Shown here: one piece after another, positions 4,832 to 45,221 of the stretch | Layout of the letters: each line of letters begins with the position of its first letter | How positions within the stretch are numbered: the first letter of the stretch is position 1 | The notes under the pieces: generated by a model | The model's database searches: none | What the model was told of the DNA's origin: nothing | Seen by the model: only the letters and a program-made list of their open reading frames with translations | Assembly (NCBI GenBank): GCA_905207515.1 | Contig: CAJLLK010000001.1 | Span: 12,782-76,781, forward strand | Direction: 5' to 3' | DNA length: 64,000 nucleotides | Origin: an uncultured Christensenella sp. | GTDB lineage: Bacteria; Bacillota; Clostridia; Christensenellales; UBA1242 | Position numbers and translations under genes: made by a program

Positions 4832-4860
4832 TTGCAAATTTAAATTTTTTGTGATAAAAT
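4832..4860 (+). promoter_or_regulatory. ygjP-like gene promoter placed for a leaderless transcript
   Basis: TTGCAA (4832-4837), 17 nt ending in TGa, TAAAAT (4855-4860), 6 nt (AAAAAT), ATG at 4867. No SD. Confidence 0.6.
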
Positions 4861-4866
4861 AAAAAT

Positions 4867-5496
4867 ATGAAAATTGAAATCATCAAAGAGAAAAGAAAAA
4901 CCATGGTGCTGAAAGTTTTGGATGAAGAACACGCTGTTTTGAAAGCACCAAAGAGTTTTAGTGATGCAAAAATAAAAACATTTTTGGATAGCAAGGCAAA
5001 ATGGCTGCAAAAAACGTGTGACAAGCTTAAATCACGCGATGATTTGGCTGCTAAATTTGACTTTGACAGGTTTGTTTACCTGGATGGCAAACAAATGATG
5101 TCGGTGAACGAAATCGCTTTTGATTTTTCCAAACTTTCTGAAAGCGCCAAGAGAAAAGCGATAAAAAATTATTATAAAACACTGTTTGTGGAAGTGGCTA
5201 AACTGGCAGAAAACCTTTCGGCAGAAACTGGCTTGAAGTTTAAAGAACTGAAAATGACAAATTCGGTCAGAGTTTGGGGGAGTTACAGCTCAAACGGAGT
5301 TATGAAATTGAATTGGAAACTTTTGATTTTGCCGCGCAAGCTCGCAGAATATGTCATCTTTCACGAGTTGTGTCACAGCAGGCACATGAACCACAAACCA
5401 CAATTTTGGCGTGCTGTCGAAAAAGTTTGCCCAGACTATAAGTTGCGAAAGAAAACTTTGAACGATTTTTCTTTTGTTTTAAGGCACGAATTTTAA
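4867..5496 (+). CDS. YgjP-like (DUF45 / M48-like) metal-dependent hydrolase
   Basis: C-terminal motif YVIFHELCHSRHMNHKPQFW and N-terminal EKRKTMVLKV...VLKAP pattern typical of the YgjP family. No SD upstream. Confidence 0.85.
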   Translation: MKIEIIKEKRKTMVLKVLDEEHAVLKAPKSFSDAKIKTFLDSKAKWLQKTCDKLKSRDDLAAKFDFDRFVYLDGKQMMSVNEIAFDFSKLSESAKRKAIKNYYKTLFVEVAKLAENLSAETGLKFKELKMTNSVRVWGSYSSNGVMKLNWKLLILPRKLAEYVIFHELCHSRHMNHKPQFWRAVEKVCPDYKLRKKTLNDFSFVLRHEF

Positions 5497-5507
5497 AGTT
5501 AGCCGCC

Positions 5508-5536
5508 GCATATTTTAAACAAAGTTACAGATACTA
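5508..5536 (+). promoter_or_regulatory. Candidate forespore-type (sigma-G/F-like) promoter of spoIVB
   Basis: GCATA (5508-5512), 17 nt, GATACTA (5530-5536), 7 nt before the ATG region. Compare the sigma-G consensus as I recall it, GHATR-N17/18-CATxxTA. spoIVB is sigma-F/G dependent in Bacillus. Confidence 0.35.
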
Positions 5537-5543
5537 AGGGCAT

Positions 5544-6719
5544 ATGAAAAGGTTTTATGTCACTGTTTTTTCTTTGTTGTTTTTGACTTTTTTATGTCTT
5601 TCGGTTCTCGCTCCGGTTCAGCTTCTCAACCAATTTGAAGGCGGATTTTTGGCTGATTATGACGATGTTGATGTTGTAAACGAAAACAAAACTTTTGGAC
5701 CGCTCATCAAAACCGAATTGAAAGCGAAAGACCAACAAGTTGGCGGGCAGAAAAACAAACAAGGCGAAATTGTTTTCAAACTTTTTGGTTTCATTCCAAT
5801 CAAAAAAGTGGATGTTGTTTTGGCGAGCGATGACGATTATTATGTCGGCGGAGTTCCTGTTGGGCTGGCAATAAACACCGGCGGAGCAATTGTCATTGGC
5901 GACGAAAACGGCAGCGTTTTGAAAGAAGGCGACATTATCACACAAATAAACGGTGTTGAAGTGAAAAATTTGAACCAAATTTCAGAAGTTTTGCAAAATT
6001 GCGGCGAAGAAGTCGAGATTGTATATTTGCGAAAAAATCGACCAATCAAGGCGCTTTTAAAAACTCACAAAGATGATGAAACAGGGCGTTTGAAACTCGG
6101 TCTTTGGGTCAAAGACGACGTCACTGGTGTTGGAACTTTGACGTTTGTCAACAAAACCACTCACAAATATGGCGCTTTGGGACATCCGATTGTCGAAGCC
6201 AACAGCGGAAACACAGTTCCGGTGTCGACTGGGAGTTTGTATGAATGCAACTTGATTGGCATAAACAAAGGCAAGAAAAATGACCCGGGCGAACTGAAAT
6301 GCGTGTTTGTTTCCAATTCAAAAAGCAAGGGCGACATTGAAAGCAACACAAAATTTGGGATAAGTGGCTATTTGAAAGACACAAAGGGTCTTGTTGACGA
6401 AAACTTGACGGCAAAACTCGGCGGCAGACTGGGAGTGAAACTTGGAAAAGCCAAGATTGTTTCCAGCATCAGCGGAATAAGAGAAGAATATGACATCGAA
6501 ATAATCAAAGCCAACTATCAAAAAACCGCAAACGACAAAAGTTTGGTGTTTAGAGTGAAAGATAAACGACTTTTGGAGCTCACGGGCGGAATTGTTCAGG
6601 GCATGAGCGGCTCACCAATCATGCAAGACGGAAAAATCGTTGGCGCGGTCACACACGTCTTTTTAAATGACCCAACAAAAGGCTATGGCGTTTACAGCGA
6701 CTGGATGGTGGCTGAATAA
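5544..6719 (+). CDS. spoIVB: SpoIVB peptidase (S55), stage IV sporulation signalling protease
   Basis: Signal/TM N-terminus, PDZ-like region (GDIITQINGVEVKN), and catalytic region GMSGSPIMQDGKIVGAVTHVFLNDPTKGYGVY. Confidence 0.9.
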   Translation: MKRFYVTVFSLLFLTFLCLSVLAPVQLLNQFEGGFLADYDDVDVVNENKTFGPLIKTELKAKDQQVGGQKNKQGEIVFKLFGFIPIKKVDVVLASDDDYYVGGVPVGLAINTGGAIVIGDENGSVLKEGDIITQINGVEVKNLNQISEVLQNCGEEVEIVYLRKNRPIKALLKTHKDDETGRLKLGLWVKDDVTGVGTLTFVNKTTHKYGALGHPIVEANSGNTVPVSTGSLYECNLIGINKGKKNDPGELKCVFVSNSKSKGDIESNTKFGISGYLKDTKGLVDENLTAKLGGRLGVKLGKAKIVSSISGIREEYDIEIIKANYQKTANDKSLVFRVKDKRLLELTGGIVQGMSGSPIMQDGKIVGAVTHVFLNDPTKGYGVYSDWMVAE

Positions 6720-6725
6720 ATTTTC

Positions 6726-43129: not shown

Positions 43130-43908
43130 AATTTCTCTCCTTTTTTTATTTCTTCAGCACGCCCATGTTGCAAATCTCCGACCGCAACAGTTCGTGTTAA
43201 ATTGACAAGCGAAATCAGCCAAATTGTCAAAGCAACAATCAGCCAAGCGACAATCAAAATGATTATCAAAGCGGGAGTTTCGCAGAACAGACAAACGCAA
43301 ACGACGCCAGCCACACTCCCTAAAAAAATCAAGCAACCAAGCAAAAATTTCATTGCACATCTGATTTTGTTGAACTCTTTTTTGACCTGTTTTTCTTTTG
43401 TTTCGATTTCTTCGATTTCCACACCAACATATTTGTTTATTCGGCTTGCCATAGACAAGTTTTGGCAAACAGACAGAAGTTCAAACATGCTTTCAGCATA
43501 ACAAATGGCAGAAATATCGTCAAAATAAGAAAAGGCAAAAACTTTTTTTATGATGTTCATCGCAATGCGCTTGAAACCATTGACAAACTTGTTGTGATGT
43601 TTTTTTAAAACGGCAATTTCTTTTTGCGAAGTGGTCAAAGAAACAAATTCGTTTTCGATCAAAGGTCTTCTGATAATAAGAATTTTTCCTTTTTCTTTTT
43701 TGATGGAATGCAAAGCGTTTATGATTTCTTCTCTGTTTGCCTTATCTGAAAAAATGTGCACATCGACATTTTTGCTCTTCAAAACAAACTTTTTTGCCAA
43801 GCTTTGTTTGATGCCGACAAAAAATTTCACTCCATTTTTTTTGTTGCCTTTTATGAAAGTGGAAAATTTTTCAACATCGCTGACAATCGGAACAATAACG
43901 TTTATCAT
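43126..43908 (-). CDS. Hypothetical membrane protein with a GT-A-like N-terminal region (weak)
   Basis: 260 aa. The start [11 protein letters not shown]... resembles a family-2 glycosyltransferase start, but I see no DxD. Two C-terminal TM helices. Translationally coupled to rpiB and gap by 4-nt overlaps. Confidence 0.5.
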
Positions 43909-44348
43909 TTGTTCTCCTTAAGCCCTTCTGAAATTTTTTTCAATCTTCTGGCATGACGACCACCTTCAAAACTTGTTGTCAAAAACACTTTGACGATGCT
44001 TATGGCTTTTCTCTTTTTCAAAAAACTGCCCGGAAGACACAAAACATTTGCGTCGTTGTCTTTTCTTGCAAGCGACGCCATTGTTGGATTGAAACACAGT
44101 GCCGCCCTGATTTTTGGATTTCTGTTTGCGGCAATGCTCATGCCAATTCCCGAGCCGCAAATAAAAATGCCGACATTGTTTTTGTTTTCAAGCACTTTGT
44201 CAACGCCAAGTTTGGCAAAGTCTGGATAATCGACTGGTTCTTTGCTGTAAGTGCCCACATCAATTGTGATGATGTTTTCTTGATTGAAGAAAGTTTTGAG
44301 TTCTTCTTTTAAAGGATAACCGCGATGGTCACTTGCCATGATAATCAT
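43905..44348 (-). CDS. rpiB: Ribose-5-phosphate isomerase B
   Basis: MASDHRGYPLKEEL, ICGSGIGMSIAANR. Confidence 0.92.
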   Translation of the reverse strand: MIIMASDHRGYPLKEELKTFFNQENIITIDVGTYSKEPVDYPDFAKLGVDKVLENKNNVGIFICGSGIGMSIAANRNPKIRAALCFNPTMASLARKDNDANVLCLPGSFLKKRKAISIVKVFLTTSFEGGRHARRLKKISEGLKENK

Positions 44349-44776
44349 AAACCACTCCTTAAGTTTTTGATTTTGTTTAAAAGCACTTCAACGTTCTGTT
44401 CAAGTTGTTTTGCGCACGACAGATAGGTGTTTAAATCTCTGCCGTAAGGGTCAAGAACTTCGCCCGCAAGCTCACTGAAACTGATAACTTTTTTCGAATT
44501 TATAAATCGTTTGTGTTCGTTTGTCACAGCGACGTAGATTGTGTTTGGTTGAATTTTTTTCAGTTTGACACTCTTTCTCTTTCTGCCGTCATAGCCCAAA
44601 GTTTTAAGCGCCAAACATGCGTTTTCTGTGATGTTTTCTCCAGTTGCATAGATGCCCGCTGACGAAAATTTGACATCTTTCAATTTTTTTTCTTTAGCCA
44701 TTTTCTTTGCAATTCTCTCAGCCATAACCGACCGACAAGTGTTGCCTGTGCACACGAAACAAATCTCTATCATCAT
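44345..44776 (-). CDS. Low-molecular-weight protein tyrosine/arginine phosphatase
   Basis: CFVCTGNTCRS P-loop (CX5R-S) at the N-terminus; DP motif (VLDPYG) near the C-terminus. Confidence 0.9.
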   Translation of the reverse strand: MMIEICFVCTGNTCRSVMAERIAKKMAKEKKLKDVKFSSAGIYATGENITENACLALKTLGYDGRKRKSVKLKKIQPNTIYVAVTNEHKRFINSKKVISFSELAGEVLDPYGRDLNTYLSCAKQLEQNVEVLLNKIKNLRSGL

Positions 44777-44874
44777 TCACCTGATTTAAGTATAACCTAA
44801 TTGAAAAAAAATTCAAAACAAATTGCTTTTATTTTTAAAAAAAGAGCCTAAAAAAGCTCTGAAGAATTAAAATT

Positions 44875-45186
44875 TTAAACTACCACCTTTTTTGGTTTGT
44901 AAAGTTTGTCTAAATTATATTTTTCTCGAATTTTTGGCAAGAAGATGTGAAGAGTGAGATGGGCAAAGTCGAAAACAATCCATTCGCCCTTGAAATAGCC
45001 TTCGATTTTCTCGTCATAACCATATTTTTCTGCAATGATATCAGCCATCTTTTTGCTGTCAACAATTTTGTTGGACGTAGATAAAACCACAAACCTTTCG
45101 TCGTCTCCAGCGCCAAGTTTGTAAACAGAAACATTTTTCATTTTGTTGTCTTGCAACAATTTGACAAGCTCTTTGATGTCTATCAT
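44875..45186 (-). CDS. rsfS: Ribosome silencing factor RsfS
   Basis: 103 aa, GEWIVFDFAHLTLHIFLPKIREKYNLDKLY. Confidence 0.9.
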   Translation of the reverse strand: MIDIKELVKLLQDNKMKNVSVYKLGAGDDERFVVLSTSNKIVDSKKMADIIAEKYGYDEKIEGYFKGEWIVFDFAHLTLHIFLPKIREKYNLDKLYKPKKVVV

Positions 45187-45192
45187 GTTTAA

Positions 45193-45221
45193 ATTTTATC
45201 AACAGCAAAAAAATTTGTCAA
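45193..45221 (-). promoter_or_regulatory. rsfS promoter placed for a leaderless transcript
   Basis: Minus strand: TTGACA (45221-45216), 17 nt, TAAAAT (45198-45193), 6 nt (TTAAAC), ATG at 45186. No SD. Confidence 0.65.

Follow-up and report, generated by a model that had tools for sequence, protein, structure and literature searches.

Leaderless mRNAs lack both a 5′ untranslated region (5′ UTR) and a Shine-Dalgarno sequence (SD), and are translated through an established pathway in which the ribosome binds the 5′-terminal AUG directly and which shows a strong preference for AUG. In validated genes of this kind, the -10 hexamer lies approximately 6–7 bp from the start codon in Deinococcus radiodurans (PMC12340547) and 6–8 nt in M. 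tuberculosis (PMC6028130). A comparable arrangement is described here for a stretch of 64,000 nucleotides (hereafter the window) from an uncultured Christensenella sp. (GenBank assembly GCA_905207515.1, contig CAJLLK010000001.1, positions 12,782 to 76,781 of the forward strand), where the ATG codons of ruvC, rsfS and a ygjP-like gene each stand 6 nt behind a -10 hexamer and have no SD. Together with a XerC/D-like recombinase gene, these three are predicted, with a probability of roughly 0.8 as judged from sequence, to be expressed as leaderless mRNAs whose transcripts begin at the start codon, and three further genes (spoIVB at 5544, and genes starting at 45295 and 53989) are probably leaderless as well. 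The host, a gut bacterium whose genome has 38% G+C, is a Caccovivens-like member of the family UBA1242 in the GTDB order Christensenellales. Candidatus Caccovivens is placed in this family and order under GTDB (PMC8035907) and in Clostridia incertae sedis under NCBI taxonomy.

Comparison with Known Leaderless Systems

The arrangement resembles that of Deinococcus-Thermus, in which differential RNA sequencing (dRNA-seq) of D. deserti (PMC4007540) and reporter assays in D. radiodurans (PMC12340547) place the -10 element about 6–7 bp from the start without an SD, most starts are AUG and orthologues keep the spacing. There, however, 30–60% of mRNAs are leaderless and the -35 element is usually missing, whereas the genes considered here form a minority class in a low-GC spore-former, carry a full TTGACA-17-TGnTAAAAT promoter (the number giving the spacer in nt) and are known from sequence alone.

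In Firmicutes, leaderless initiation was called uncommon by an earlier note on this DNA, and the literature agrees (PMC9045289; PMC5171806; PMC3160421; PMC6028130). The leaderless group C of GeneMarkS-2, defined by approximately 25–50% of operons being predicted leaderless genome-wide, takes in 90% of Actinobacteria and 3.4% of Firmicutes genomes (PMC6028130). A computational survey found leaderless genes in 56 of 209 Firmicutes genomes, where they make up 4.2% of genes on average, mostly in Lactobacillales and Mycoplasma (Zheng et al., 2011; PMC3160421). The predictions for Lactococcus/Streptococcus and Mycoplasma in that survey resemble the present genes in their TAtAAT-type signal and in a peak of TG (extended -10) ahead of the Pribnow box, but Clostridia are not mentioned in it and the Christensenellales/UBA1242-like clade was unknown at that time. 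Within the same bacterial class, start maps of model Clostridia, which define leaderless transcripts by a 5′ UTR shorter than about 6 nt, list 2–4% of transcripts as such (PMC9045289 for solventogenic clostridia; PMC5171806 for C. phytofermentans). Those of C. phytofermentans mostly retain an alternative upstream start and a ribosome-binding site (RBS) (PMC5171806), whereas in the window about 7 of about 30 transcription units have no RBS and a conserved geometry. The seven conserved candidates (up to nine in all) stand among approximately 73 genes, and both this count and the approximate number of units refer to one window. A literature search returned nothing on leaderless ruvC beyond Deinococcus, on leaderless rsfS or on translation initiation in Caccovivens. 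The mechanism is thus already known, and what is new is its high frequency in this Clostridia lineage; as far as the compared genomes indicate, the arrangement is a lineage trait of the Christensenellales/UBA1242-like clade.

Promoters Adjoining the Start Codons of ruvC, rsfS and ygjP

The earlier note had ascribed to these three genes one geometry, consisting of a -35 box, 17 nt, TAAAAT, 6 nt and ATG, and all of its coordinates were confirmed base by base. Upstream of ruvC (27553–28041, reverse strand), TTGACA (28076–28071) is followed after 17 nt by TAAAAT (28053–28048) and, 6 nt further, by the ATG at 28041, the whole element covering 28039–28076. The promoter of rsfS (44875–45186, reverse strand) lies with the start codon in 45184–45221 and consists of TTGACA (45221–45216), 17 nt and TAAAAT (hexamer 45198–45193, or 45201–45193 with its TGa extension), with 6 nt left before the ATG at 45186. 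This gene is apparently monocistronic, and a terminator-like hairpin with a T-run lies 3′ of it (44843–44860, reverse strand). The ygjP-like gene (4867–5496, forward strand; PF01863) has TTGCAA (4832–4837), 17 nt, TAAAAT (hexamer 4855–4860, with TGa 4852–4860) and 6 nt before its ATG at 4867, within 4832–4869. Pfam supports the identities of RuvC, RsfS and YgjP-like proteins, as it does those of the phage-integrase-type recombinase, ArsP_2 exporter and Sm_multidrug_ex proteins considered below. The gap, counted throughout as the number of nucleotides between the end of the -10 hexamer and the start codon, is directly visible at these loci, as are the correct start codons, the absence of an SD and the terminators or divergent genes upstream.

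The composite of -35, 17 nt, TAAAAT, 6 nt and ATG occurs three times in the window against 0.01 expected from dinucleotide-preserving shuffles. TTGMMA-N17-TAAAAT by itself is found in five copies where 0.4 are expected, and the remaining two copies are leadered promoters, one serving a cysteine-desulfurase-like gene (true ATG at 21667, with an SD) and the other the long infC-rpmI-rplT leader. With a generic sigma-A weight matrix, 24 sites score at least 12 as compared with 4.65 in Markov-shuffled sequence, an approximately 5-fold excess. Among the 2110 ATGs of both strands, only five have a promoter of this score at a gap of 5–8 nt, and three of the five are the starts of ygjP (score 14.0), ruvC and rsfS, the last scoring 17.5, joint top in the window alongside two leadered promoters. 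When intergenic promoters scoring at least 11 are sorted by gap, the same three genes have a gap of 6 nt, nine genes, including a PadR-like gene, tig and yebC, have gaps of 18–33 nt and a clear SD, and three genes have longer leaders of 67–176 nt; the sole promoter outside these groups is that of a metal exporter, with ATGs at 1 and 10 nt.

SD strength was taken as the energy of the anti-SD duplex, a start being called SD-led at -4.5 kcal/mol or better, after mis-called starts had been moved to the first in-frame codon with an SD (asp23 at 35632, nusB at 35268, obg at 47745, ruvB at 26802 and rbgA at 61038). By this measure 58 of the 73 starts are SD-led, in keeping with the claim that most other genes here have strong SDs; most genes reach -6 kcal/mol or better, and the four core genes (ruvC, rsfS, ygjP and the recombinase gene), none of which has an SD, give +1.0 to -2.1 kcal/mol. 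Of the 15 starts whose SD is weak or absent, 9 are preceded by a -10-like hexamer at a gap of 5–8 nt; of the 58 SD-led ones, none is (Fisher p = 5e-8). The SD and the abutting -10 thus never occur together, which is what two alternative classes of initiation would lead one to expect. The distinct promoter-abutting subclass without an SD that had been proposed is upheld by this mutual exclusion, and also by the conservation of the gap across divergent orthologues.

An internal calibrator is provided by the signal recognition particle (SRP) RNA gene (bacterial large type, RF01854, 155.8 bits; 40618–40882, forward strand), which is the sole match in the window at Rfam gathering thresholds; no leader RNA or riboswitch was matched near any candidate. 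Its promoter, TTGACA-17-TATAAT at 40582–40610, is a perfect consensus, and the RNA starts 7 nt after the -10 element that ends at 40610, which gives the usual distance from -10 to RNA 5′-end in this genome. An open reading frame (ORF) of 62 codons on the reverse strand (40686–40874) overlaps the SRP RNA and is probably spurious.

Conservation of the Arrangement among Relatives

ruvC was compared over 80 loci, one genome per species, all from uncultured Clostridia (Caccovivens, UBA11517 and genomes labelled 'Christensenella'), by taking the best promoter within 60 nt of the ATG. At RuvC identities of 68–94%, 56 of 56 loci have a strong -35/-10 promoter with a gap of 6 nt (50 loci), 7 nt (two) or 8 nt (four); all 56 start with ATG and none has an SD upstream. 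At 65% identity or less, all 21 loci have either a 21–50-nt leader with GGAG/AGGAG or an operon-internal ruvC. The 6-mers between -10 and ATG differ widely, 50 different ones being found among 55 distinct sequences (54 relatives and the window). The spacing rather than the sequence is therefore conserved, and is under purifying selection across the related genomes. Purines are absent from position -1 of these 55 sequences, 34 of which have T there and 21 C; the SD-led genes of the window have T in 23 cases, A in 17, C in two and G in one. RNA polymerase prefers to start at a purine (+1) that follows a pyrimidine (-1), and the invariable pyrimidine at -1, which fits this preference, indicates the A of the ATG as +1.

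In the window, ruvC is the first cistron of ruvC-ruvA-ruvB-queA-tgt, whose internal cistrons ruvA, ruvB, queA and tgt are SD-led. Directly upstream of its promoter, the terminator hairpin of yebC with its U8 run (28094–28135, reverse strand; -14.6 kcal/mol, z = -3.1) argues against a read-through leader.

The two elements are separate in the window and do not overlap. In 22 of 53 distinct relatives (L001–L055, from rabbit, deer or human samples; for example, L001 at approximately 2943–2992), the yebC terminator hairpin, with energies down to -21 kcal/mol, encloses the ruvC -35 TTGACA within its loop or close to it, and its T-run runs into the ruvC -10, so that terminator and promoter form an overlapping module.

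For rsfS, 11 metagenome loci with 55–77% protein identity yielded nine distinct sequences, all of the form TTGACA-17-TGn-TA(A/C/G/T)(A/T)AT. Including the window, the gap is 6 nt in nine of the ten distinct sequences and 8 nt in the tenth. RsfS homologues at 35–43% identity have SD leaders. For ygjP, a TGn-extended TAnnnT with a gap of exactly 6 nt to the ATG is found in the window and in each of five distinct relatives (38–60% protein identity), and the order recN, Sm_multidrug_ex, PadR, ygjP, spoIVB, recombinase and tig is kept in the relatives.

The recombinase gene (6847–7881, forward strand; PF00589) was one of four sites that the earlier note had listed as weaker. Its promoter and start (6812–6849) comprise TTGTTT (6812–6817), 16 nt, a TGt-extended TATACT (6831–6839) and 7 nt before the ATG at 6847; the promoter scores 9.8, and a perfect 14-bp terminator hairpin with a T-run, located after spoIVB (6726–6770), lies upstream of it. 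Three relatives (L100, L104 and L105) have a TGn-extended TATAAT, 6 nt and ATG, and in L104 the gene caller skipped the promoter-abutting ATG and thereby truncated the protein.

In the window the recombinase gene shares its strand with spoIVB and tig, but in every relative examined (L100–L106) it has the opposite orientation and diverges from tig. This difference in orientation is a local inversion that carried the promoter along; flanking inverted repeats that might explain the flip were sought, and nothing convincing was found.

Predicted Mechanism and Alternative Explanations

In the sigma-A promoters of these genes (TTGACA, 17 nt and an often TGn-extended TAAAAT or TATAAT), the -10 hexamer covers positions -12 to -7 as counted from the A of the start codon, and with six bases in between, +1 would fall on that A. 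RNA polymerase would then start at a purine that follows a pyrimidine, and the mRNA would begin with pppAUG, carrying no 5′ UTR and no SD. A ribosome with the initiator tRNA would bind the 5′-terminal AUG directly by the leaderless pathway, and downstream cistrons such as ruvA and ruvB would be translated from ordinary SDs. Where exactly transcription starts and how translation proceeds are inferred from the geometry; the AUGs at the predicted 5′ ends are unpaired.

Several points weigh against this reading. First, the composite pattern was chosen post hoc, from data already inspected, and the generic sigma-A matrix was built as an independent test for this reason. Second, when -10-like hexamers were defined loosely (at least four of six matches, with A in the second place and T in the sixth) and tallied by position over the 73 starts, the profile was not significant and did not peak clearly at the 6-nt gap; it was dropped as stand-alone evidence because the AT-rich spacers are too noisy. 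Third, the related loci are phylogenetically linked, so that the counts exceed the number of independent events. Fourth, no terminator was seen between yhbY, the nearest gene upstream on the strand of rsfS, and the opposite-strand gene at 45295, and a read-through transcript from yhbY may reach rsfS. Finally, no member of this order is known to translate leaderless mRNAs.

The main rival explanation takes the mRNAs to be leadered. Transcription would start further upstream, by read-through or from other promoters, an AU-rich unstructured region would allow initiation without an SD, and the hexamer next to the ATG would be incidental. The path from yhbY to rsfS suits this explanation, and so do the AT-rich upstream regions, in which loose -10-like hexamers are frequent at many offsets, and the example of C. 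phytofermentans, where 'potentially leaderless' starts mostly have another upstream start and an RBS (PMC5171806). It is nevertheless unlikely, being weakened by three features that it leaves unexplained: a consensus TTGACA is conserved 17–18 nt upstream of the hexamer, the 6-nt gap is fixed despite sequence drift, and -1 is always a pyrimidine; an AU-rich enhancer would impose none of them. Moreover, terminators stand directly before ruvC and the recombinase gene, and the upstream neighbors of ygjP and rsfS are divergent genes.

That the start codons are mis-called, the ATG sitting in a short 5′ UTR and translation beginning further downstream at an SD-led codon of the same frame, is very improbable, even though precisely this holds for two other genes of the window. 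The first ATGs of asp23 (35662) and rbgA (61068) had the appearance of promoter-abutting starts and were rejected, the true SD-led starts lying 30 nt downstream at 35632 and 61038. The earlier note had argued that its start codons were not mis-called, and the homologues bear this out. The Pfam match of RuvC spans residues 3–150 and thus begins within MRILGIDPG, RsfS homologues of 103–104 aa have the same N-terminus, YgjP homologues (209 aa) share their first residues and length, and no downstream in-frame SD-led start exists in these genes. Chance juxtaposition of a promoter-like sequence with an ATG in AT-rich intergenic DNA is less probable still: at 38% G+C, consensus scans do return 50, 43 and 75 promoter-like sites against 33, 35 and 40 expected, but all 56, 10 and 6 related sequences for ruvC, rsfS and ygjP, respectively, keep the geometry, no SD is present where it occurs, and the threefold occurrence of the composite far exceeds its expectation. 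Chance and mis-called starts are effectively excluded, and direct initiation at a 5′-terminal AUG remains the preferred account of the four genes.

Further Candidates

The earlier list of five to seven candidates stands for ruvC, rsfS, ygjP and the recombinase gene and fails for the exporter and the gene at 2240, which are treated in the following section; it had missed three others, at 53989, 45295 and 5544 (spoIVB), all of them predicted to be leaderless by the same reasoning from conserved upstream elements.

At 53989 (53977–53991, forward strand), CATATT (53977–53982) is followed by 6 nt and ATG, and the anti-SD duplex scan found no SD before this codon. The gene (53989–54489) lies directly 3′ of lgt and encodes a membrane protein of 166 aa that begins with MNGRFWGIKK, in agreement with the conserved N-terminus M-x-G-R-x-x-G-I-K-K of its homologues. 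Three relatives (L107–L109) have CATAAT, 6 nt and ATG, and L110 has AATAAT, 6 nt and GTG; the start was missed by gene callers in two of these (L109 and L110), whose proteins are truncated.

The 45295 gene (45295–46107, forward strand), which is divergent from rsfS, encodes a membrane protein of 270 aa that belongs to no Pfam family, and its start was confirmed in 15 loci by tblastn from residue 1. Its upstream element (45259–45297) consists of GAATA (45261–45265), 14 nt, GTCAAAAAT (45280–45288) and 6 nt before the ATG; here too the anti-SD duplex scan found no SD. Homologues (L081–L096), distant loci included, keep G(T/G)C(A/T)A(A/T)AAAT and 5–7 nt before the ATG, with a GAATA/GATTA box 14–15 nt upstream of this -10-like motif, and the motif is retained even where rsfS itself is SD-led.

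In spoIVB (PF05580), the element at 5508–5546 (forward strand) comprises GCATA (5508–5512), 17 nt, GATACTA (5530–5536) and 7 nt before the ATG at 5544. The box type in the window and its relatives is GnATA-17-(C/G)AT(A/T)CTA, 7 nt from the ATG, as exemplified by GAATA-17-CATTCTA-7-ATG in L111. No convincing SD was found in the window or in L100, L104, L105 and L111, and in L104 and L105 the gene callers picked downstream starts.

In B. subtilis, the consensus of forespore promoters comprises a GnATA-type -35, a spacer of 14–18 nt and a G-rich/CATnnTA -10. The promoters of the 45295 gene (sigma-F-like) and of spoIVB resemble this sigma-F/sigma-G type and are putatively assigned to it. Genes for spoIVB belong to the sigma-F/sigma-G regulons of B. 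subtilis and C. difficile (PMC3789822).

Weak and Rejected Cases

At all four sites listed as weaker the described sequences are present, and relatives back the recombinase alone among the three for which they decide the matter, the exporter being SD-led in relatives and the 2240 gene unsupported.

The metal exporter gene (PF11449; element at 56373–56412, reverse strand) has TTTGCA (56412–56407), 17 nt and a TGt-extended TATAAT (56392–56384), followed by ATGs at 56382 (gap 1 nt) and 56373 (gap 10 nt), of which the homologous N-termini M-(x)-E-I-F-V-D-S-L-Y-D favor the latter. Four relatives (L107–L110) have TG(t/c)TATAAT followed by a 16–30-nt leader with a GGAG-like SD. These SD leaders behind the same -10 rule the exporter out as a conserved leaderless gene; the arrangement with gaps of 1 and 10 nt is peculiar to the present genome, where the leader would at best be 3–4 nt long.

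The 2240 gene (Sm_multidrug_ex) does have TATAAA, 5 nt and ATG, and the N-terminus MLDFF of its protein is conserved. However, the hexamer is defective, lacking the near-invariant final T, the ATG is contained in the 3′ arm of a terminator hairpin (2220–2249; with T-run 2220–2256, forward strand; -15.8 kcal/mol, z = -5.1), and most relatives have an SD (an SD leader in L100–L104; TATAGT, 5 nt and ATG in L105). A leaderless reading of the 2240 gene is therefore rejected as unsupported. The hairpin belongs to an ORF of 396 codons (1008–2198, forward strand) with no Pfam family, located between recN and the Sm_multidrug_ex gene. This ORF is absent from relatives, in which those two genes are adjacent.

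The fourth site, at 31513–31524 (reverse strand), remains a weak candidate with TATAAT (31524–31519), 5 nt and the ATG at 31513. The gene (30950–31513) encodes a 187-aa membrane protein whose start residue is shared by its closest homologue (P0354, 74% identity). The promoter scores 4.1, no -35, TGn or SD was found in the upstream region, and a terminator-like hairpin (31582–31563) lies upstream.

Annotation and Lineage

Standard gene callers mis-place such starts in metagenome-assembled genomes. RsfS homologues are over-extended to 116–134 aa instead of 103 aa, and exporter homologues are annotated with an N-terminal 'MCYN' that is the translated promoter box TGTTATAAT; examples of such proteins in these two families are P0235, P0240, P0246, P0333, P0042 and P0104. 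If this class were recognised, N-termini and promoter maps could be put right in a large group of gut genomes. The genes also offer a well-resolved Clostridia example of orthologues switching between SD-led and predicted leaderless forms, with a boundary at 65–68% protein identity for ruvC, which can be used to study the gain and loss of initiation mechanisms. Compact conserved promoter modules, such as a terminator hairpin that wraps the -35 of the next gene, could be tested in heterologous Firmicutes.

A broader hypothesis, tentative and somewhat doubtful at present, is that the UBA1242 lineage has shifted at family level approximately 20–30% of its transcription units to leaderless expression, including ruvC, rsfS, xerC/D-like and sporulation-sigma genes (spoIVB and the 45295 gene), and that ATP/GTP levels might tune this class of A-starting transcripts together. 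The conserved housekeeping genes ruvC, rsfS and xerC/D-like are SD-led or operon-internal in the remoter relatives that were sampled. Joint tuning is conceivable because all such mRNAs would have A as their first nucleotide. Stringent control that depends on the +1 nucleotide has been described in B. subtilis, and tuning of this kind, if true, would suit the starvation factor RsfS.

Other Observations in the Window

Near rsfS on the reverse strand, an LMWPc-family gene has TATACT, 12 nt and ATGATG (44776–44800), and AGGTGA adjoins the first ATG; the implied leader is approximately 6 nt long, its 5′ end being the SD itself. Inside a 260-aa gene (43126–43908), TTGACG-17-TGtTATGCT stands 6 nt before an in-frame ATG (43488–43523, reverse strand; score 12.9), a site that could be due to chance or could be an internal leaderless start for a 120-aa C-terminal product. 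An eight-gene cluster at 35692–40468 (reverse strand) is like a spoIIIA operon in gene sizes and order, as judged by eye; together with the Pfam-confirmed spoIVB (5544–6719, forward strand), it suggests that the small-genome UBA1242-like host retains endospore genes.

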